DNA of 35,268 bases from Candidatus Micrarchaeota archaeon (lineage in GTDB: Archaea; Micrarchaeota; Micrarchaeia; Norongarragalinales; Norongarragalinaceae). A program made the translations under genes and the position numbers. Each line of letters opens with the position of its first letter. Position 1 is the first letter of the stretch. The stretch spans positions 1 to 35,268 of the forward strand of contig JACQQD010000007.1 of the NCBI GenBank assembly GCA_016207165.1, read 5' to 3'. This document shows, piece after piece, positions 5,928-33,818 of the stretch. The notes beneath the pieces are model-generated. The model did no database searches. It was not told where the DNA came from and saw only the letters and a program-made list of their open reading frames with translations.

Positions 5928-6079
5928 TATAGCAAGACCGACAAATGAAACAAACCGCCAAACGGTTTGTTGCATGCTGCAAGCCGTTATCGGCTTGCAT
6001 CATTTTACGACGAATAGGTCGGTCTTGCTAGACAGCAAACCATGACTATTAAGTCGGGAAACTTTCATGGTTTGCTGTA
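5928..6079. repeat. Paired palindromic repeat element, copy 1 (MITE/REP-like)
   Basis: TA + TAGCAAGACCGAC...GTCGGTCTTGCTA (5930-6030) + GA + CAGCAAACCATGA...TCATGGTTTGCTG (6033-6077) + TA; homologous to 19813-19906 and 33179-33330. Confidence 0.9.
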
Positions 6080-6100: not shown

Positions 6101-8905
6101 CTAACTGTTCGTGCGGATGGTGATTGCGCTGTCCACTTCGTCTTGACCGAGGCGTACGCTGACGAGGGCGAAACTGAGCACGGTTTGGCCACCGCTTTTA
6201 TACGTCAACCCCGCGTTGGGCCCGCAGTCTTGTCCCCCTTCAAAGCAGGCGGGCTGCACTTGGATTCTTTCTACGTGGGAGCCATCGGCTTTGAAGACCT
6301 CGAAGTCTACCGGCACTTCAAACGTGTATTGCGGGGATACTTTTTGATCCGCCATTTTGTTGGCGTACGTTCCCCAGGGCACGCCGTCGCCCACCACAAT
6401 GCCGAACTTGACGCTGTAGCCGCTTGAAAACGTTACGCAATCGCCCAATTTGAGGGTCTGCGTTCCAGACGCAGTCGGGCAGGATGCCGGTTTTTCGTTG
6501 GTCCGCGAGAAACGCGTGTAGTAATTCCAGTTGGCCACGGGTTTGAGGACTTTTTGTGCGGCGGCGGGTTTGAATTCCACGGCGTGCATGGCGCTGGTTT
6601 CGTACTGGTACGCGATGCCTTTCGTGCTCGGGTCCACATCGATGACGCGCTTGTTTCCGGAGTCGGAAATCAGCCAGTGCCCGTTGGATCGAACCGTAGC
6701 GCTTTGCGGGTCATTCAATTGGTTGGCTCCGGCGCCCTTGGTTCCCGTTGTGCCGTACTGGTTCACGATGGCGCCTGTGGCGGGGTCGACTTGGATGACG
6801 CGTTGGCTGCCCGAATCCGTGATGAGCCAGTGGCCGTTGGGCATTTCAACCGCCCGGCTTGGGTGCTTCAGTCCCGTGAATTGGCGCACGATGGCGCCTG
6901 TGGAGGGGTCAACTTGGATGACGCGGTGGTTGTCGTACTGTTCCAAGTAACTGTCTCCGTCGGTGACCAGCCAGTGGCCGTTGGATAATTCGACCACGTC
7001 GCGGGGGTTGAATCGTTCGTCCACGGTGTTTTCAAAGACGCCCTGGTTGTCCGGCGGCTCGTATTTTCGCACGATGGCGGTCGCGTCGCTGGGTTCTTTG
7101 GCGGGGTCAATTTCGATGATGCGTGCGTTGGCGGTGTCCGCCACCAGGATGTGGGCATTTTTCATGGGTACGGCGGCGCGGGGGCTGTCCAAGTAACCGG
7201 ATCCATTCCCGCGGGAGCCTTGCTCTCCGGTCACCCAGTAGGGAAATTCTCCGTACTGGTAGACGTTCTTGTTCGTGCTCGGGTCCACTTGCACGACGCG
7301 GTAGTGCTCCAAATCGGTAATCAGGATGTGACCGTTTGGCATTCCGACGGCGGACGTCGGAATTCTTAGTGCCGACGGGCCGACGCTTCCGGAGTACAAG
7401 TACGCGACGGCTTCCGGTTCAGAAACCGGTTTGGCGGGATCCACTACGATCACGCGGAAGCCTTTCTCGTCGGTAATCAGGATGCCGTTTTGGGGCGGCG
7501 TCGCCAGTTTTTCGATGGCTGCGGGCGCCGGCGTTACGCTGGGCTGGGGTGTCGTCGTGGGAGCCGGGCTTGACGTTGTGGTGGGCTCTGGTTCTGTTGA
7601 AGGCGCCTGGGGAATGAATTGCGTGACGGTTTCTGAAGCCGAAAACCCGCTTCCTTGGACGCTCCAGGAAAGTGGGAATCCGTATTCGGCGTCCAAGCAA
7701 GCCGATCCTTTCAAGTCGGAAAAGGCGTTGCCGCCGAGGCTATTCAATTCGGCCAGTCCTTGGGGGGTCAGCGACAAGGCCAGTCGCGTGCACGTGCGGT
7801 CGCCGAAGATGGACGTGCCTTGGTTTTCCACTTTCAGCAATTCGCTGACGGGCAAATCGGGTGCAAATACTTTGACGGCTTCTTCCAACGCGTTGTTGTC
7901 CAATGCCGCAAAAAGCTGTTCGACTTGGTCTTGCGTTGGATTAATGCAGTTCTTTGTTCCGGCGGCGGCTTGGATGGGATTCAACTGAGTGGGAGCAAAT
8001 TCGGGGTTGGTCAATACAAGCTGGCCTTCCGAATTTGAAGCGATGGTCTTGGGTTTGGGTGGTGCCGCCGGCCCGGCCGGTACGCCGTTTTCGCATTGGT
8101 AACACGTCGTGTCGGACGTGCAGACTTGGCCGGTGAATTTTGGTCCGGGGTACGTGCATGGATTGGGTGTTGGGGCGGGGGTGGACGTGGCGCCGGTTCC
8201 AGTTGTTGGAGTTGGACTGGGGGTTGCCTGCGTGTTGCGGATGCAGTCAGGCAGGCCTCCGGATTGGAAACCGCAGGCTTCATCCGGCGCGCAACAGGTA
8301 TAAACAAAGTTGGCGCCGCACAGGTGGTAGGGCGGGTTTCCCGGCGGGGTGTAACACGTGTCGGCAAATGACAGCGATTCGGGGGCGGACTGCGTTGCGA
8401 TTCGACTGGACGAGGTCACGCAGATGCTGGACGCGTCGGTCTTGGATAGATGCGCTTGGATGGTCTCGACGGGGTTTGCATCGGAGTCCAGGCTGGTCCA
8501 CGTCACGTCGAAGCTGTCGGTGGTGGCGCTGAAGCTTTTCTGGTAGGATGGCGCGGAAATGAGGCGTTTGACCGTCGATGTGACGTCTTCGTCGTCAAAA
8601 GACATTTCGTCCATGGCACGCAGGGCCAATGAAAACGATCCTTGGCCTTCCGTAGTCATTTGGTAGGCTTTCGGGGCACTGGTTTTCATTTCCGCAAGTC
8701 CAGCAAGGAATCCGCCGGAGACGGGGACTTCTTGTTGGGCTTGTTTTACGGCTTGGCTTCCAACGGGTTCTGGAGTCGGAGTAGGGGCTTCAGTTGGTAA
8801 GGCCGTTGGCGTCGCCGTCGGAGTGGCGGTTCCACCCAGGCAACCGAAAACCAGTATGCTGGCGGCCAAAACCGCGAAAAGACCCCATTTCATTGGAAAA
8901 ACCAC
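6101..8905 (-). CDS. Large surface lipoprotein with Pro/Thr linkers, Cys-rich modules and NHL-like beta-propeller repeats
   Basis: Signal peptide with lipobox-like LVFGC; PT repeats; repeated NGHWLITDSG.QRVIQVDP.TGAIV units. Confidence 0.8.
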   Translation of the reverse strand: MVFPMKWGLFAVLAASILVFGCLGGTATPTATPTALPTEAPTPTPEPVGSQAVKQAQQEVPVSGGFLAGLAEMKTSAPKAYQMTTEGQGSFSLALRAMDEMSFDDEDVTSTVKRLISAPSYQKSFSATTDSFDVTWTSLDSDANPVETIQAHLSKTDASSICVTSSSRIATQSAPESLSFADTCYTPPGNPPYHLCGANFVYTCCAPDEACGFQSGGLPDCIRNTQATPSPTPTTGTGATSTPAPTPNPCTYPGPKFTGQVCTSDTTCYQCENGVPAGPAAPPKPKTIASNSEGQLVLTNPEFAPTQLNPIQAAAGTKNCINPTQDQVEQLFAALDNNALEEAVKVFAPDLPVSELLKVENQGTSIFGDRTCTRLALSLTPQGLAELNSLGGNAFSDLKGSACLDAEYGFPLSWSVQGSGFSASETVTQFIPQAPSTEPEPTTTSSPAPTTTPQPSVTPAPAAIEKLATPPQNGILITDEKGFRVIVVDPAKPVSEPEAVAYLYSGSVGPSALRIPTSAVGMPNGHILITDLEHYRVVQVDPSTNKNVYQYGEFPYWVTGEQGSRGNGSGYLDSPRAAVPMKNAHILVADTANARIIEIDPAKEPSDATAIVRKYEPPDNQGVFENTVDERFNPRDVVELSNGHWLVTDGDSYLEQYDNHRVIQVDPSTGAIVRQFTGLKHPSRAVEMPNGHWLITDSGSQRVIQVDPATGAIVNQYGTTGTKGAGANQLNDPQSATVRSNGHWLISDSGNKRVIDVDPSTKGIAYQYETSAMHAVEFKPAAAQKVLKPVANWNYYTRFSRTNEKPASCPTASGTQTLKLGDCVTFSSGYSVKFGIVVGDGVPWGTYANKMADQKVSPQYTFEVPVDFEVFKADGSHVERIQVQPACFEGGQDCGPNAGLTYKSGGQTVLSFALVSVRLGQDEVDSAITIRTNS

Positions 8906-9037
8906 CCGGAAGCAAAAAAGCGCGTTGTCGCTTGATTTCTAGCTAATGGCGTGGCTAATTAAATGGTTTCGGTTGGTTTGACGGTTTGTCAACTGAAAAG
9001 CATTATTTAATCCGGACGTCCCTTAACGGCTACTCCC

Positions 9038-10231
9038 ATGGTGGAATTCAAAGACGTGTTGGCTTCCAGGCAGACCGTGTTTGCCTACAAGCAAGCCTTG
9101 TCTCCTCACTTCGTGCCGGAAACCCTTCCGTATAGGGAACTGGAACTGCGGCGAATGATGGAAGCCATTGCGCCGGTGTTGGAGGGCCAGAAAGCCAAGA
9201 ACCTGTTTTTGTACGGCAAAACCGGCACCGGCAAATCGTCGTGCACGCGCTACGTCATCCAGAAATTGGACGCCGAGCAAAAGCCGTCGGTCAAGGCGTT
9301 GTACATGAATTGCCGCGTGTACGACTCGCGATACAAAGTCCTCCAAAAAGTCATCCACCACTTCCACCCGGACTTCGCCAAGACGGGGTACTCGTTTGCC
9401 GTTCTGTACGAAAAACTCTTGGATTGGGTCGAGGAGGAAGCCAGGCAGTTGGTTGTGGCGTTGGACGAGATCGACATGGTCAAGGACTTGGACAACCTGG
9501 TCTATACCTTGACGCGGGCCAACGACGACTTGCGTTCCGGAAGCATTTCGCTTATTGGCGTGTCCAACAAAGTGGACTTCAAACACCGCCTGGACGCCCG
9601 GTCGCGCTCCTCCTTGTGCGAAGAAGAACTCGTATTTCAGCCCTACAACGCGGAACAGCTCACCGGCATTCTCAAGAAACGCGGGGCGCAGGCCTTCAAG
9701 GAAGGCGTTTTGAAGGAAAGCGCCGTCAACCTGGCCGCCGCCATTGCCGCGTCCGAAAACGGCGACGCGCGGTACGCGCTTTTGCTGTTGCTTCGCGCCG
9801 GCGAGCTTTGCGACGAAAAGAAAAAAGCCGACGTGTTGGACGTGGACGTGGAGGCTTCCCGAAAGGCGGCGGAAGAGGAAAAAGCGTTTGAAGTCATTGG
9901 CACCCTCCCCGAACACCAGCAATTGTTGTTGTACGGCTTGGCCACCCTGGCCAGCGATGTGACGTACAAGCGGTTGGTCGAGGAGGACGGCGACAAACTC
10001 TACTTTTCCGGGGAAGTCTACGAACGCTATGCCGCCACGGTAAAGAAACTCGGCAAAAAACCGCGAACGAGCCGCTGGTACCGGGAATACTTGAAGGAAC
10101 TGGATAATTTGGGGCTGATTAACACCGTCCAAAGCGGGAAAGGCGTTCGCGGCCACACCACCTTGATTCGGTTGTCGTATGAGCCGGAGCGCGTCAAACA
10201 AGTCATCGAGCAAAAGGTCCTCGGCGAATAA
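9038..10231 (+). CDS. cdc6: Orc1/Cdc6 replication initiation protein
   Basis: Walker A GKTGTGKS, Walker B LDEID, FQPYNAEQL, GDARYA sensor region, C-terminal winged helix (ELDNLGLI...GVRGHT). Confidence 0.95.
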   Translation: MVEFKDVLASRQTVFAYKQALSPHFVPETLPYRELELRRMMEAIAPVLEGQKAKNLFLYGKTGTGKSSCTRYVIQKLDAEQKPSVKALYMNCRVYDSRYKVLQKVIHHFHPDFAKTGYSFAVLYEKLLDWVEEEARQLVVALDEIDMVKDLDNLVYTLTRANDDLRSGSISLIGVSNKVDFKHRLDARSRSSLCEEELVFQPYNAEQLTGILKKRGAQAFKEGVLKESAVNLAAAIAASENGDARYALLLLLRAGELCDEKKKADVLDVDVEASRKAAEEEKAFEVIGTLPEHQQLLLYGLATLASDVTYKRLVEEDGDKLYFSGEVYERYAATVKKLGKKPRTSRWYREYLKELDNLGLINTVQSGKGVRGHTTLIRLSYEPERVKQVIEQKVLGE

Positions 10232-16881: not shown

Positions 16882-19833
16882 ATGCCGAAAGACAAATCCA
16901 TACAAAACGTCTTGGTCTTCGGCTCCGGACCCATCATCATCGGCCAGTCCGCCGAATTCGATTACTCCGGGTCCCAGGCATGCCTGGCGTTAAGAGAGGA
17001 AGGCGTGCGCGTGGTTTTAGTCAACAGCAACCCCGCCACCATCCAGACGGATTTGGACATGGCCGACGAAGTGTACTTGGAGCCGTTGACCCCGGAAATC
17101 GTGGAGAAAATCATTGAAAAAGAAAAACCGGACGCCGTACTGCCAACGCTTTCCGGCCAAACGGGTTTGAACCTGGCCGTCGCGCTCAAATCCGCGTTCA
17201 AGCAGTTCAACGTCCAAGTCATCGGCACCTCCGTTGAAACCATCGAGTTGGCCGAAGACCGCGAAAAATTCCGCGACCTCATGGTCGCGCTGGGGGAGCC
17301 CGTGCCGGAGAGCCACCGCGTCAAGACCGTCGACGAGTTGGCCGCCGCCGCGAAGAAAATCGGTTTGCCCGTCCTGCTTCGACCCGACTATTGCCTCGGC
17401 GGCGAAGGCACCGTGTTTGTCACCGACGAGAACGATTTGAGAACCAAAGGCAAGTACGCGCTTCAGATGTCCGGCACGCACCAAGTGCTCGTCGAAAAAA
17501 GCGTGTTCGGCAAAGCCGAATTGGAGTATGAAGTCATTCGGGACGGAAACGACAATTGCATCACCATCTGCTCCATGGAGAACCTGGACCCCGTTGGAGT
17601 CCACACCGGCGAGAGCATCGTGGTGGCTCCGGCGCAAACGCTGTCGGACGACGACCACCAGAAACTCCGCTCTTCCGCCATCCGCATCGTGCGCGCCTTG
17701 GCCGTCAAGGGCGCGTGCAACATCCAGTTCGCGTTGGACCAAGAGACCGGCGGATACTGGGTCATTGAAGTCAACCCCCGCGCGTCCCGGTCTTCCGCTC
17801 TGGCATCCAAAGCCACCGGGTACCCCATTGCGCGGGTCGCCGCCAAAATCGCGTTGGGTTACACGCTCACGGAAATCCAGAACAAAATCACGGGCAAGAC
17901 CGCGGCCTTTGAGCCCGCCCTGGATTACGTCGTGCTCAAGATTCCCCGTTGGCCCTTTGACAAGTTCGGGTTAAACGAACTTATTGGCACGTCCATGAAG
18001 TCCACCGGCGAGACCATGGCCATCGGGAAAACGTTCGAGGAATCCGTGTGCAAGGCCGTGCGGTCCCTGGATTTGAAGGGCACCGACGTGTTAAGCAACG
18101 CGTCGTACGACGCCACGGAAAAGAGGTTGTTCCACCTCATCGAGCGCCTCAAAACGGAACGCGTCGAACACGTGGCCGAGGCCACGAAAATCAACGCGTG
18201 GTTCCTGCACAAACTGAAAAACCTCTCCGCCACCAAGACGGGCCTCGTCGACTTTGCCGCATTGCAGGAAAGAAAACCCGTGTTCAACATGGTGGACACG
18301 TGCGCCGGCGAATTTGCGGCAAAGACGCCGTACTATTACTCGACTTTGTTTGCCGACCACGACGAAGCCGTGGCCTCGGCCAAAAAGAAAATCGTGATTT
18401 TAGGCGGCGGCCCCATACGCATCGGCCAAGGCATCGAGTTTGACTACTGCACCGTAAAAGCCATCCAGGCGCTTCGCGAAGCCGGGTTTGAGACCATCGT
18501 GGTGAACAACAATCCGGAAACCGTGTCCACCGATTTTGACGTTTCCGACAAGCTCTATTTCGAGCCGCTGACCGTCAAAGACGTGCACCGCATCATCCAA
18601 ACGGAAAAGCCTGACGGCGTTCTGGTGCAGTTTGGCGGCCAAACCGCGCTCAACCTCGCCGAACCCCTGGCGGCGCTGGGAGTAAACGTGTTGGGCACCA
18701 CCGTTGAAAACTTGAATCGAGCCGGAGACCGAAAGCAGTTCAAGGAACTCATGACTCGTTTAGCCATTCCAACAGTCAAAAGCGCGGTGGCCCGCTCCCA
18801 AACGGAAGCCTTGGACGTCTCCAAGACCCTTTCTTTTCCGCTGTTGTTGCGCCCCTCCTTTGTCCTGGGCGGACGCGCCATGTTCGTGGTGCACAACCTC
18901 AAACAACTGGAGCACCGAATCGAGGAATCGCTTCTGATTTCCGAAGGCAAGCCCGTCATCATGGACGAATTCCTCGAAGGAGCCGTGGAATTGGATGTCG
19001 ACTGCCTGGGCGACGGGAAAAATTGCCTGGTCGCCGGCGTCATGGAGCAAGTAGAGGAAACCGGCATCCACTCCGGCGACTCCGCCTGCGTGCTCCCGGC
19101 GCAAACCCTGTCCAAGAACGTGTTGGAACGCGTCAACCTATTCGCAAAACGCATTGTCACCACCCTGGAAATCAAGGGGTTCTGCAACATCCAGATGGCC
19201 GTCAAGGACAACGAGATTTACGTCATCGAAGTCAACCCCCGCGCCAGCCGAACCATTCCCTTTGTCTCCAAAGCCACCGGATTGCCTCTAGCCAAAATGG
19301 CCGCCCTCATTCAAGCCGGGGAACTCACCTTGGACCGCGTGCCGGAACCTAAAACCCGGCTGGTGGCCGTCAAGGCGCCCGTGTTTCCCTTCAAACGCTT
19401 CCCCTTGGTTGACCCTCTTCTAAACGCGGAAATGAAGTCCACGGGCGAAACCATGGGTTTCGGCAAAACGTTTGCCGAAGCCTATTTGAAGGCCTTGCAC
19501 GCCGCCGGCCAGCGGTTCGGGAAAAACGTGTTCGTCGACCAAGACAAAAAGCATGCCGCCCGCATGAAGTCGGCGTTCAAGGACGCCGGCCTGACGGTAA
19601 CCAACACGCTGGAAGAAGCGGACTTCGCCGTGAGCACCGAGGAAGGCCAAGAAAACGCCTCCCTTCGAAGGCAATGCATTGCCGAAGGAAAGACCTGCGT
19701 CACCAGCTTGTTTGCCGCCCTGCGCTTGGCGGAGGCCATCAAGTCCGCACCCCATTTTGAATTGGTTGCGTTGTCCAAGGTCCACGACGCCCAGCCTACC
19801 CAAACCCGAACTTACAGCAAGACCGGCGAATAA
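16882..19833 (+). CDS. carB: Carbamoyl-phosphate synthase large subunit
   Basis: GSGPIIIGQSAEFDYSG, two ATP-grasp halves (IEVNPRASR twice), MKSTGE motifs. Confidence 0.97.
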   Translation: MPKDKSIQNVLVFGSGPIIIGQSAEFDYSGSQACLALREEGVRVVLVNSNPATIQTDLDMADEVYLEPLTPEIVEKIIEKEKPDAVLPTLSGQTGLNLAVALKSAFKQFNVQVIGTSVETIELAEDREKFRDLMVALGEPVPESHRVKTVDELAAAAKKIGLPVLLRPDYCLGGEGTVFVTDENDLRTKGKYALQMSGTHQVLVEKSVFGKAELEYEVIRDGNDNCITICSMENLDPVGVHTGESIVVAPAQTLSDDDHQKLRSSAIRIVRALAVKGACNIQFALDQETGGYWVIEVNPRASRSSALASKATGYPIARVAAKIALGYTLTEIQNKITGKTAAFEPALDYVVLKIPRWPFDKFGLNELIGTSMKSTGETMAIGKTFEESVCKAVRSLDLKGTDVLSNASYDATEKRLFHLIERLKTERVEHVAEATKINAWFLHKLKNLSATKTGLVDFAALQERKPVFNMVDTCAGEFAAKTPYYYSTLFADHDEAVASAKKKIVILGGGPIRIGQGIEFDYCTVKAIQALREAGFETIVVNNNPETVSTDFDVSDKLYFEPLTVKDVHRIIQTEKPDGVLVQFGGQTALNLAEPLAALGVNVLGTTVENLNRAGDRKQFKELMTRLAIPTVKSAVARSQTEALDVSKTLSFPLLLRPSFVLGGRAMFVVHNLKQLEHRIEESLLISEGKPVIMDEFLEGAVELDVDCLGDGKNCLVAGVMEQVEETGIHSGDSACVLPAQTLSKNVLERVNLFAKRIVTTLEIKGFCNIQMAVKDNEIYVIEVNPRASRTIPFVSKATGLPLAKMAALIQAGELTLDRVPEPKTRLVAVKAPVFPFKRFPLVDPLLNAEMKSTGETMGFGKTFAEAYLKALHAAGQRFGKNVFVDQDKKHAARMKSAFKDAGLTVTNTLEEADFAVSTEEGQENASLRRQCIAEGKTCVTSLFAALRLAEAIKSAPHFELVALSKVHDAQPTQTRTYSKTGE

Positions 19834-19906
19834 CACGACGAAATAGGCCGGTCTTGCTGTCTAGCAAGCCAAGAAAGTAGTCGGGAAACTTTCTTGGCTT
19901 GCTATA
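19813..19906. repeat. Paired palindromic repeat element, copy 2 (short form)
   Basis: TA + CAGCAAGACCGGC-19nt-GCCGGTCTTGCTG + TC + TAGCAAGCCAAGAAAGT-9nt-ACTTTCTTGGCTTGCTA + TA. Confidence 0.9.
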
Positions 19907-31996: not shown

Positions 31997-32383
31997 ATGA
32001 CGGAAGTACTGGACGTCATCGGGCGAATGCACAACCACGTGATTGAACACGGGTTCCAACGGTTCGGCGTTACCAAGCCACCCGAACCACGAGAGATTCA
32101 AGGACACTCCTTGAAAGTCTATAGAGTCATCTATGAGAATCCAACGGGTTATCACGCGCCATCCATGGATGAACAAGCGCCTTCGGACGACCCCATTGAA
32201 CGACTTCGAAGCCAACTCACGGAAAAATACCCCAATGTTTTGGTCCACCACTACCGAGGTGCCACGGACTTGGAGGGCTTTACCACCATCGACTTTGCCG
32301 ACAAAAACGATCCAACGCTTTCAAAGGCCGACGTTCTCAATGTCTACGCGCGACTGGGCATGGGCCCAAGGGGACTAAAATGA
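31997..32383 (+). CDS. Hypothetical protein between pyrD and pyrK
   Basis: SD GAGGTG; stop overlaps the pyrK ATG (ATGA). Confidence 0.65.
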   Translation: MTEVLDVIGRMHNHVIEHGFQRFGVTKPPEPREIQGHSLKVYRVIYENPTGYHAPSMDEQAPSDDPIERLRSQLTEKYPNVLVHHYRGATDLEGFTTIDFADKNDPTLSKADVLNVYARLGMGPRGLK

Positions 32384-33174
32384 AGCTTTCCGCCGCCTTT
32401 GAAATGGTCCGCCTCTTGGAGGTCAAAAACGAGAATCCCTCCACCAAGACCTTCGTCTTTGAGCACGACTTGGGAGCCAAGCCCGGCCAATTCGTTATGG
32501 CCTGGATTCCCACAGTCAACGAGAAACCCATGAGCGTGGGCGGCGACGAAGGCAACACGTTTTCCCTGACTGTGGCCAACGTGGGAACGTTTTCCGAAGC
32601 CTTCCAAAAACTCAAACCCGGCGACCGCATCGGCGTTCGGGGCCCGTATGGACGCGCCTACCAGTTGAAAGGCAAGCGCGTGGCCATGGTCGGCGGCGGA
32701 TTTGGCTCCGCGCCGCTTCGCTTCCTTGCGGAACTCGCCCGGAAAAAGGCGGTGCACGTGGACTTCATCCAAGGCGCGCGCTCCAAGGACCGATTGATCC
32801 TGGAAAAGGACATCCAAAAACTCGGCTGCCACCTGCATGTTGCGACGAACGACGGCTCCAAAGGAAAAAAAGGAATGGTGACCGACGTGTTGGCGGAACT
32901 CTTGAAGGCCAACCGCTACGACGGCGTGTACGCCTGCGGCCCCGAATTGATGATGCAGGCCGTCGGCAAGCTTTGCGAAAAACACGCCACGTACTGCGAA
33001 ATCTCGGTGGAACGCTACATGAAGTGCGGATTCGGCGTGTGCGGCCAATGCGATTGCGGCGGTCTTCTGACTTGCGTGGAAGGCACCGTGGTGGACTACC
33101 AGAAAATTAAGGACAACCCTGATTTCGGCAGAATCCACCGCGACGCCTCCGGACAAAAACACTTCTTCAAATGA
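32380..33174 (+). CDS. pyrK: Dihydroorotate dehydrogenase electron transfer subunit
   Basis: PGQFVM, RGPYG, GGGFGSAP, ACGPELM, [2Fe-2S] motif CGFGVCGQC...C. Confidence 0.95.
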   Translation: MKLSAAFEMVRLLEVKNENPSTKTFVFEHDLGAKPGQFVMAWIPTVNEKPMSVGGDEGNTFSLTVANVGTFSEAFQKLKPGDRIGVRGPYGRAYQLKGKRVAMVGGGFGSAPLRFLAELARKKAVHVDFIQGARSKDRLILEKDIQKLGCHLHVATNDGSKGKKGMVTDVLAELLKANRYDGVYACGPELMMQAVGKLCEKHATYCEISVERYMKCGFGVCGQCDCGGLLTCVEGTVVDYQKIKDNPDFGRIHRDASGQKHFFK

Positions 33175-33178
33175 GGAT

Positions 33179-33330
33179 TATAGCAAGACCGGCAAATGAA
33201 ACAAACCGCCAAGCGGTTTGCTGCATGCTGCAAGCCGTTATCGGCTTGCATCATTTCACGACGAATAGGCCGGTCTTGCTAGACAGCAAACCAAGACTAT
33301 TTTATCTGTTTACTTTCTTGGTTTGCTGTA
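33179..33330. repeat. Paired palindromic repeat element, copy 3
   Basis: First unit 33181-33281 differs from copy 1 at 5 of 101 nt; second unit 33284-33328 has 13-bp arms CAGCAAACCAAGA/TCTTGGTTTGCTG. Confidence 0.9.
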
Positions 33331-33818
33331 TGGAACGGCTCAACGTGCTTGGAGACCTCAAAGCGAACCTCAAACGCTACGGCATTTCCATGACGGGTGT
33401 TTCGCGCGTAACCGTCATCCATCCCTTGGATTCCAGAGAAAATTTCGACCTACAATCCGGAGTAGTAACGCGGCAACCTCGTGCGGCCGGACGAAACGAA
33501 CAGAAATTCGAGGGTTTCCAAGTTTTTCTTGACGGCCCAACCCAACAGTTGAACGGAAACCACGCATTCAATGAGCTCTGCCGCTGGCTCATGCAAAACA
33601 GGGAAATTGCTGTCCGCACCCACGAAGAACACGTGATTTCCCCGCGTTGGCCGCAAGCCCAAGACGCCGAAAGACTTCGGCAGGAAGGACACGGCGTCCG
33701 CGCGGACATGCTGGAAACCGATTACGGCACGCCCCAAACCACGTTGCTGGTTTACAGCAAAAACCCGCTTTCCGATTCCCTGATGGAAAAGGCAAGAGCC
33801 CTGGTGCAACACCCGTGA
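33330..33818 (+). CDS. Hypothetical protein
   Basis: MERLNVLGDL...; ATG overlaps the terminal TA of repeat copy 3; stop overlaps the next GTG start. Confidence 0.6.
   Translation: MERLNVLGDLKANLKRYGISMTGVSRVTVIHPLDSRENFDLQSGVVTRQPRAAGRNEQKFEGFQVFLDGPTQQLNGNHAFNELCRWLMQNREIAVRTHEEHVISPRWPQAQDAERLRQEGHGVRADMLETDYGTPQTTLLVYSKNPLSDSLMEKARALVQHP

Follow-up and report, generated by a model that had tools for sequence, protein, structure and literature searches.

Repetitive extragenic palindromic (REP) sequences of bacteria are stem-loops with stems of 5 to 13 bp and loops of 2 to 20 nucleotides (nt). According to the accessible part of PMC3733652, inverted dimers predominate among them, in some families with a gap of 1 to 5 bp, the two partners may differ in stem or loop (heterodimers), and copies are found inside the ends of open reading frames (ORFs). 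MITEs (miniature inverted-repeat transposable elements) of archaea are listed for Sulfolobus, Halobacterium, Haloquadratum, Desulfurococcus, and “several other” genomes in the available portion of PMC10969869, and a large automated census, likewise available in part, gives high MITE densities in two other DPANN genomes (PMC11602168). Here, we describe a family of paired hairpins flanked by TA, found in a 35,268-nt stretch of DNA (hereafter the window) that is one whole contig of a 12-contig, 1.27-Mb assembly of a Micrarchaeota (DPANN) archaeon with 56% G+C and an estimated completeness of 90%. The host genome of the window is called G000 and its congener G001; other G numbers are relatives of the same order.

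The window holds three copies of the element, at 5928–6079 (copy 1), 19813–19906 (copy 2), and 33179–33330 (copy 3). A preliminary description of this DNA had assigned to all three the skeleton TA-YAGCAA…TTGCTR-NN-YAGCAA…TTGCTR-TA, and they are as it claimed. The unit is a hairpin of 43 to 45 nt, with a conserved foot of 6 bp (YAGCAA/TTGCTR), a core of 7 bp that varies yet remains complementary, and a loop of 17 to 19 nt with the conserved consensus CTATT-nn-GTCG-K-G…ACTT. Two inverted units (loop on the minus strand, then loop on the plus strand), joined by GA or TC and with TA on either side, make up a doublet of about 90 nt. The junction motif TTGCTRNNYAGCAA occurs three times in the window versus a mean of 0.00 in 100 dinucleotide-preserving shuffles, and six of the 11 inverted-repeat pairs in the window (I1, I2, I4, I5, I6, and I10) are these units. 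In folds of single-stranded DNA (ssDNA), each strand of copy 2 gives a pair of neighboring hairpins (−35.2 and −34.8 kcal/mol; z = −9.6 and −8.9), and the fold of copy 1 reaches −52.3 kcal/mol (z = −11.0).

We read these elements as non-coding, non-autonomous mobile palindromic repeats of Micrarchaeota that resemble REP dimers and bacterial interspersed mosaic elements (BIMEs), insert at TA, are recognized or maintained as a DNA hairpin, and are copied in trans; to this reading, we assign a probability of about 0.6. It corresponds to the first of the options raised in the preliminary description, that of an archaeal MITE-like or REP/REPIN-like element (REPIN, REP doublet forming a hairpin) with TA flanks, which is supported by the dispersed, multi-copy, and lineage-limited occurrence of the family, by near-identical copies at unlinked loci, and by insertion sites that are not shared. 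What is new is an archaeal hairpin doublet that is REP/BIME-like, has TA flanks like those of MITEs, and lacks a recognizable mobilizer. Judged by titles and the beginnings of abstracts, none of the papers listed on palindromes in Micrarchaeota, on REPIN or REP-associated tyrosine transposases (RAYTs) in archaea, and on MITEs in DPANN archaea describes the family, and the lists of PMC11602168 may include it unnamed.

The complementarity of the two arms was analyzed in 79 distinct units, with 13 stem pairs and 1026 cells, using 500 shuffles of the 3′ letters and slid partners as controls. Of these cells, 95.3% hold a standard pair, compared with 74.2% after shuffling and 27 to 56% with slid partners. 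Ten of the 13 stem pairs show two-sided changes, and the number of cells with a two-sided change was 214, as opposed to 64.7 in the shuffles; none of the 500 shuffles reached the observed values, a count that is not a probability since the units are related. About 20 distinct 7-mer cores were found. Given the slid-partner controls and the many distinct cores, the case for real compensatory change is strong, and the compensatory changes claimed from the window, where every arm variant quoted is present and complementary, hold on the larger set. In one relative (L118), the foot also covaries (TAGTCG/CGACTA), and the outermost base of the unit is variable (T in 54 and C in 17 of the 79 units).

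The 59 cells that are not Watson–Crick pairs comprise 11 G–T/T–G combinations, 10 A–C/C–A combinations, which are of the G–T type on the other strand, and 38 others, such that wobble pairs are not enriched on either strand. This lack of wobble tolerance argues for complementarity at the level of DNA rather than of an RNA helix. Because Watson–Crick complementarity alone is kept, on either strand, while loop and foot keep their sequence, the recognized or maintained form would be a DNA hairpin, either in ssDNA or as a cruciform.

The outer TA belongs to the host. The palindrome ends at TA, with positions −3 and +3 mostly not complementary; in two independent tandem arrays (the L083-type locus and L036), successive doublets are separated by one shared TA and not by two; and the A of the right-hand TA of copy 3 is the first base of the downstream ATG, which is ancestral, the element-free ortholog in G001 having the same ATG and the same first residues. 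For these three reasons, we regard the TA as the target and not as part of the element. TA is found at both ends of 36 of the 62 strictly defined clusters, and the other 26 have GA or TC at one end; in our reading, the latter is the inner spacer beside a partner that is too degenerate for the pattern. A or T occupies position −3 in 81% of 124 ends, the genome having the G+C content given above. Insertion would thus have taken place at a W-TA-W site (W, A or T), leaving TA, duplicated, on both sides.

A profile search (nhmmer) extended the three copies known from the window to about 45 units at about 30 loci on nine of the 12 contigs of G000. Searching with copy 2 by BLAST gave matches in five of 31 genomes of relatives, G000 included. 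A covariance model built from the alignment of the 79 distinct units was applied to 68 genomes of the order and detected the family in 13 of them, spread across four families, with more than 200 matches in all. High counts were obtained for G000 (55, some palindromic units being counted on both strands), G001 (68), G009 (41), G002 (27), and G063 (19); the few matches in each of the remaining genomes may be chance matches or relics. A pattern with 19 specified bases was found in 12 stretches among 185,579 species genomes, 10 of which lie in three metagenome-assembled genomes (MAGs) of Candidatus Micrarchaeota from groundwater; we take the other two, in unrelated bacterial MAGs, to be chance matches. 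Metagenome contigs yielded 38 stretches with this pattern; viral contigs, plasmids, and phages yielded none. In G000, relatives, and metagenome loci alike, the units nearly always form (minus, plus) doublets, and the inner spacer was 2 nt long at all 39 strictly defined junctions (TC in 21, GA in 16, and TT in two). At one metagenome locus (L098; contig Ga0209343_10076196, approximately 1404–1508), the flanks of the doublet are reverse-complementary to each other over at least 50 nt. The assembly has probably folded back at the palindromic element here, and the locus was excluded as context evidence; its two units were retained in the alignment of units.

The family is dispersed and recently copied, and different species carry it at different sites. 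In G000, the most similar pairs of copies at unlinked loci share 94 to 99% identity, and between genomes, the elements are 89 to 92% identical, whereas flanking genes reach only 70 to 73%. To compare sites, 20 element loci of G001 were fetched, of which 18 contained a unit and seven had both flanks in one region of G000; none of these seven syntenic sites is filled in G000. An eighth candidate (L118) was dropped, its position being at the opposite gene end. In the reverse comparison, G001 and G002 both lack copy 2 between carB and the NOP56 gene, and G001 also lacks copy 3 between the two orthologous genes. Direct evidence of insertion comes from a nested 57-nt element within copies 1 and 3, for which uninterrupted units represent the empty sites.

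Copy 1, which is 152 nt long, consists of TA, a first unit on the minus strand (5930–6030) with a nested insert, the inner spacer GA (6031–6032), a second unit on the plus strand (6033–6077), and TA. The arms of the first unit (5930–5942 and 6018–6030; core GACCGAC/GTCGGTC) enclose a loop that is split by the nested element (5946–6002). This 57-nt element has the structure TGA-hairpin-GCATGC-hairpin-TCA and is inserted at T^TT of a loop whose intact form is known from other units. The second unit is 45 nt long and has the core ACCATGA/TCATGGT and the loop CTATTAAGTCGGGAAACTT. Copy 2 is a plain doublet of 94 nt, with a first unit on the minus strand (19815–19859; core GACCGGC/GCCGGTC; minus-strand loop CTATTTCGTCGTGTTATTC), the inner spacer TC (19860–19861), and a second unit of 43 nt on the plus strand (19862–19904; core GCCAAGA/TCTTGGC), in which AAGT/ACTT extends the stem to 17 bp. 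Copy 3 is built like copy 1. Its first unit, on the minus strand (33181–33281; arms 33181–33193 and 33269–33281; core GACCGGC/GCCGGTC), contains a nested element of 57 nt (33197–33253) and is followed by the inner spacer GA (33282–33283) and a second unit on the plus strand (33284–33328; core ACCAAGA/TCTTGGT; loop CTATTTTATCTGTTTACTT). The preliminary description had singled out three 45-nt units, at 6033–6077, 33284–33328, and, read on the minus strand, 19815–19859; their perfect 13-bp arms and the 19-nt loops quoted are all present. Within their first 109 positions, copies 1 and 3 differ at five, two of which constitute one compensated pair.

In copies 1 and 3, the 75-nt spacer that the first unit appears to have is thus a normal loop split by a separate element, which itself consists of two small hairpins around GCATGC. 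This second element occurs four times in G000, only within units of the main family (5946–6002 and 33197–33253 in the window, 128019–128075 on contig C8, and 35254–35313 on contig C12). It occupies two different sites, both of the form T^TT, namely the same loop position in three closely related units and a position just inside the 3′ foot of one unrelated unit. The copy at the latter site is divergent, and its hairpins bear an AGCAA/TTGCT foot. A third kind of insert, composed of two to four small hairpins (modules CACAAA…TTTGTG-TGG and CCTTGC…GCAAGA), is inserted immediately behind the 5′ foot, between the two units or within them (contig C8 of G000, 128112–128168, L043; L033, 2745–2860; L034, 3470–3585). 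Small hairpin modules seem to accumulate in the main elements. In the first nested hairpin, the 5-nt loop reads CCAAG in copy 3 (33208–33212) and is the reverse complement, CTTGG, on contig C8 (128030–128034), with identical stems. Among the three composite copies, the third thus has the loop of the nested hairpin reverse-complemented relative to the other two, an inversion of the loop, or a flip of the whole hairpin, that points to events at the level of the hairpin.

In the mechanism that we propose, the element would insert at a W-TA-W site and have TA on both sides afterwards, and a structure-specific enzyme would probably copy it in trans, by analogy with the action of RAYT on bacterial REPs. 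A more far-reaching version, which we put forward only tentatively, is a hitherto unrecognized, hairpin-dependent ssDNA mobile system of DPANN archaea, in which modules with an AGCAA/TTGCT foot would be copied into TA sites and into each other's loops and foot junctions. The enzyme might then fall outside the known transposase families (neither Y1-HUH nor DDE_3), or replication-coupled templating might do without a dedicated transposase.

Several findings weigh against the interpretation as mobile repeats copied in trans. A mobilizing enzyme was not found among the Pfam transposase and recombinase families tested. That the window contains no cognate transposase, as originally stated, is correct and extends, for these families, to the whole 90%-complete genome. 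Five element-bearing genomes (G000, G001, G002, G009, and G024) were compared with the other relatives among the 31 genomes. Y1_Tnp (PF01797) was detected in none of the five; it was found in six of the 31 genomes, all without high-copy elements, and in six of 14 controls. DDE_3 (PF13358) was likewise detected in none of the five and is present in three of the 31, all element-free, and in control genomes. Among the element-bearing genomes, the TnpB zinc ribbon (PF07282) occurs only in G002 and G009, DDE_Tnp_1 (PF01609) and rve (PF00665) only in G001 and G009, IS110 (PF01548) only in G009, and a resolvase (PF00239) once, in G000. Transposase_1 (PF01359) gave no match, but the control genomes were silent too. 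Nor did any gene family recur beside elements in different contexts, among 773 ORFs within 1.2 kb of elements, and those genes that G000 has in several copies are ordinary ones, such as transporters and FtsZ.

Two candidates were considered and rejected. One is a DDE_Tnp_1 ORF of G009 at a distance of 175 nt from an element (L022); there is no second unit on its far side, and the copies in G009 have no common ends. The other is a tyrosine recombinase of 406 residues with a C-terminal zinc ribbon, of which G000 has two copies that are 62% identical (contig C3, 309–1529; contig C5, 32405–33694). Its family, which is common in the order (15 of 31 genomes), is not codistributed with the element; the protein is probably the integrase of an integrated element. 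All genomes are MAGs of 71 to 90% completeness, and repeats and insertion sequences are often lost in such assemblies, so that the absence of an enzyme is weak evidence. The mobilizer either belongs to none of the Pfam transposase families tested or lies outside the assemblies.

Also on the negative side, neither Logan contigs, metagenome contigs, nor locus comparisons provided a precise empty site of high identity. Logan contigs of four DNA runs (X1–X4, from one study) stop at the repeats (19090–19877 and 33207–33274), and none of the joints listed for them bridges a copy; the sole repeat-related joint among those listed runs from copy 3 (33301) into copy 2 (19879). Identity to syntenic metagenome contigs is no more than 72 to 82%, and these differ in their intergenic regions, and an all-against-all megablast of the collected element loci at 90% identity or more gave no indel of the size of the element. 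For these reasons, we infer the TA duplication and do not report it as shown. Furthermore, a double-strand DDE mechanism would also be consistent with the symmetric ends and the TA flanks, and the counts of gene context given later were obtained with our own crude gene caller. Finally, templated correction of quasi-palindromes during replication can keep arms perfect without selection. If the arms of these elements were maintained in this manner, which could be the case, the hairpin need not be the form recognized by an enzyme; the compensated pair that distinguishes copies 1 and 3 fits selection and templating alike.

The alternative that survives best is an ordinary MITE of the IS630/Tc1-mariner type that duplicates TA and is moved as double-stranded DNA by a DDE transposase encoded elsewhere or unassembled, the self-complementarity of each unit being incidental or kept by template switching during replication. 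IS630-family elements duplicate TA, and the TA that is invariant at both outer sides, the preference for A or T next to it, the single TA common to tandem doublets, and the symmetric ends and length of about 90 nt would all be expected of such an element. Archaeal MITEs are known in Sulfolobus, Halobacterium, and Haloquadratum (PMC10969869, as far as accessible). We nevertheless consider this explanation unlikely. A binding site in double-stranded DNA leaves unexplained why seven variable positions per arm stay complementary in 79 units and why even the foot covaries in L118, the outermost base varies, and DDE_3 is confined to element-free relatives, as described previously.

Gene context bears on a second alternative, a module that acts in the 3′ untranslated region as terminator, mRNA stabilizer, or processing site, is useful to the host, and is mobile only secondarily. 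Of 32 loci, 29 are intergenic (17 between tandem, nine between convergent, and three between divergent genes), and 26 of these 29 face at least one gene 3′ end. Many lie within 30 nt of a stop codon, and at about five loci, such as carB, the stop codon is inside the element. The doublet reads alike in both directions of transcription, and roles of this kind are known for bacterial REPs (PMC3733652, accessible part). The structured RNA that the preliminary description offered as an option is disfavored by other observations, and we judge a primary RNA function to be improbable. Rfam holds no matching family: the window gave no match at the gathering score, and at E values up to 1, only a chance match to a miRNA precursor (25.5 bits versus a gathering score of 63). 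Of the 1026 cells, wobble pairs make up 11 when one strand is read and 10 when the opposite strand is, whereas the remaining mismatches number 38. The polarity of the doublet, GA or TC in the sense of the adjoining gene, is random (six versus five among 11 assessable doublets), positions are not kept between congeners (none of seven), and elements are not followed by a T-tract. An RNA function at 3′ ends is possible as a secondary use and is not favored as the reason why the hairpins are kept; effects on the host, such as new stop codons and hairpins in 3′ untranslated regions, are likely by-products of mobile repeats.

Still less probable are folded sites of a tyrosine or serine recombinase (attC- or dif-like) or cruciform sites for a protein of chromosome architecture. 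The junction TTGCTR-NN-YAGCAA does resemble a short inverted core site, the loop sequence is conserved, and G000 encodes the two zinc-ribbon tyrosine recombinases and one resolvase. However, the tyrosine recombinase family is present in the element-free genomes G007, G011, G017, G020, and G021, the same query gave no match in element-bearing G024, and the resolvase is found in one of the five element-bearing genomes. Thus, no recombinase is codistributed with the element, and the hairpin recombination substrate suggested earlier finds no support. Moreover, a fixed protein site would not allow free variation of 7 bp per arm, and the doublets are dispersed between housekeeping genes instead of forming cassette arrays. 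We rejected a CRISPR array, as well as a terminator with a T-tract, given that no T-tract follows the elements.

The placement of the three window copies at gene 3′ ends, noted at the outset, holds in each case. The end of copy 1 is 23 nt from the stop codon of the minus-strand gene 6101–8905, the stop codon of carB (16882–19833) lies in the loop of the first unit of copy 2, and copy 3 begins 6 nt past the stop codon of the gene at 32380–33174 and fits exactly between that stop and the next ATG, at 33330. The window carries archaeal genes, including those for aNOP56, Orc1/Cdc6, and subunits of carbamoyl-phosphate synthase and dihydroorotate dehydrogenase. For the 934-residue product of the gene directly upstream of copy 1 (6101–8905, minus strand), NHL and beta-propeller repeats are the sole annotation. 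The carB product, the large subunit of carbamoyl-phosphate synthase, has 983 residues compared with about 1058 in the profile; its last codons and its stop are supplied by copy 2, and the ortholog in G001 has a different C-terminal end. At 33171–33333, copy 3 separates the stop codon of the electron-transfer subunit of dihydroorotate dehydrogenase from the next ATG, and a GAGGA motif is thereby 150 nt away from the start codon. One may speculate that the two hairpins of copy 3, if folded in the mRNA, would bring motif and start codon close together again. The Orc1/Cdc6 gene (9038–10231; Cdc6 lid and winged-helix domains) adjoins an intergenic region (8906–9037) that may contain a replication origin. 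Genes between neighboring elements, for example, one for a methyltransferase, are ordinary.

The family matters in several respects. REP/BIME doublets and RAYTs are treated as bacterial in the accessible part of the literature, and a clear, strongly covarying DPANN counterpart without RAYT extends that biology to archaea and points to another mobilizing activity. The element alters gene ends: one copy contains the stop codon of carB, and another is situated between a stop and the next start codon. As repeats, the copies fragment short-read assemblies of these organisms, and they offer a ready-made strain marker for them, uncultured as they are. With the 79-unit alignment and the covariance model, the family can be searched for.

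Several known systems invite comparison. Integron attC sites are folded ssDNA hairpins, conserved in structure more than in sequence, that bound cassettes beside an integrase. We rejected this identification, since there are no cassette arrays and no adjoining integrase and the doublets are dispersed between housekeeping genes on nine of 12 contigs. Palindrome-associated transposable elements (PATEs), which derive from IS200/IS605, are small non-autonomous elements with hairpin-forming ends and are thought to move as ssDNA. Their ends are asymmetric, their hairpins are in direct orientation, and the target tetranucleotide is found on one side only; here, by contrast, the units are inverted, the same TA is present on both flanks, and among the five element-bearing genomes, none has Y1_Tnp and two have the TnpB zinc ribbon.

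MITEs flanked by TA, such as the SM elements of Sulfolobus and the Correia elements of Neisseria, are also comparable. The SM elements, as MITEs of the IS630/Tc1-mariner type, and the Correia elements duplicate TA. The family shares with these MITEs a length of about 90 to 150 nt, its non-coding nature and multiple copies, inverted ends with TA on both sides, an AT-rich target, and sites between genes or at gene ends. It differs from them in that each half is a perfect palindrome with covarying arms and that no related transposase with these ends was found; moreover, the TA duplication is inferred here rather than seen at an empty site.

The likeness is greatest with REP dimers, BIMEs, and the REPIN–RAYT system. 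Both consist of short extragenic palindromic stem-loops that number in the tens (here about 45 units), and, as far as the accessible part of PMC3733652 goes, inverted pairing a few base pairs apart, heterodimers, copies at ORF ends, covarying stems, and the sizes of stem and loop are also shared. The differences are that Y1_Tnp/RAYT was not found in the element-bearing genomes, that the one-ended GTAG or CGTC tag of REPs (same source) is replaced in the 79-unit consensus by a symmetric YAGCAA/TTGCTR foot, that TA is invariant on both flanks, that each unit folds on itself and not with its partner, and that the host is a DPANN archaeon, the word “archaea” occurring only in the reference list in the accessible text of PMC3733652. 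The family is not a REP member as defined, and the REP dimer or BIME with its RAYT is, by analogy, its closest working model.

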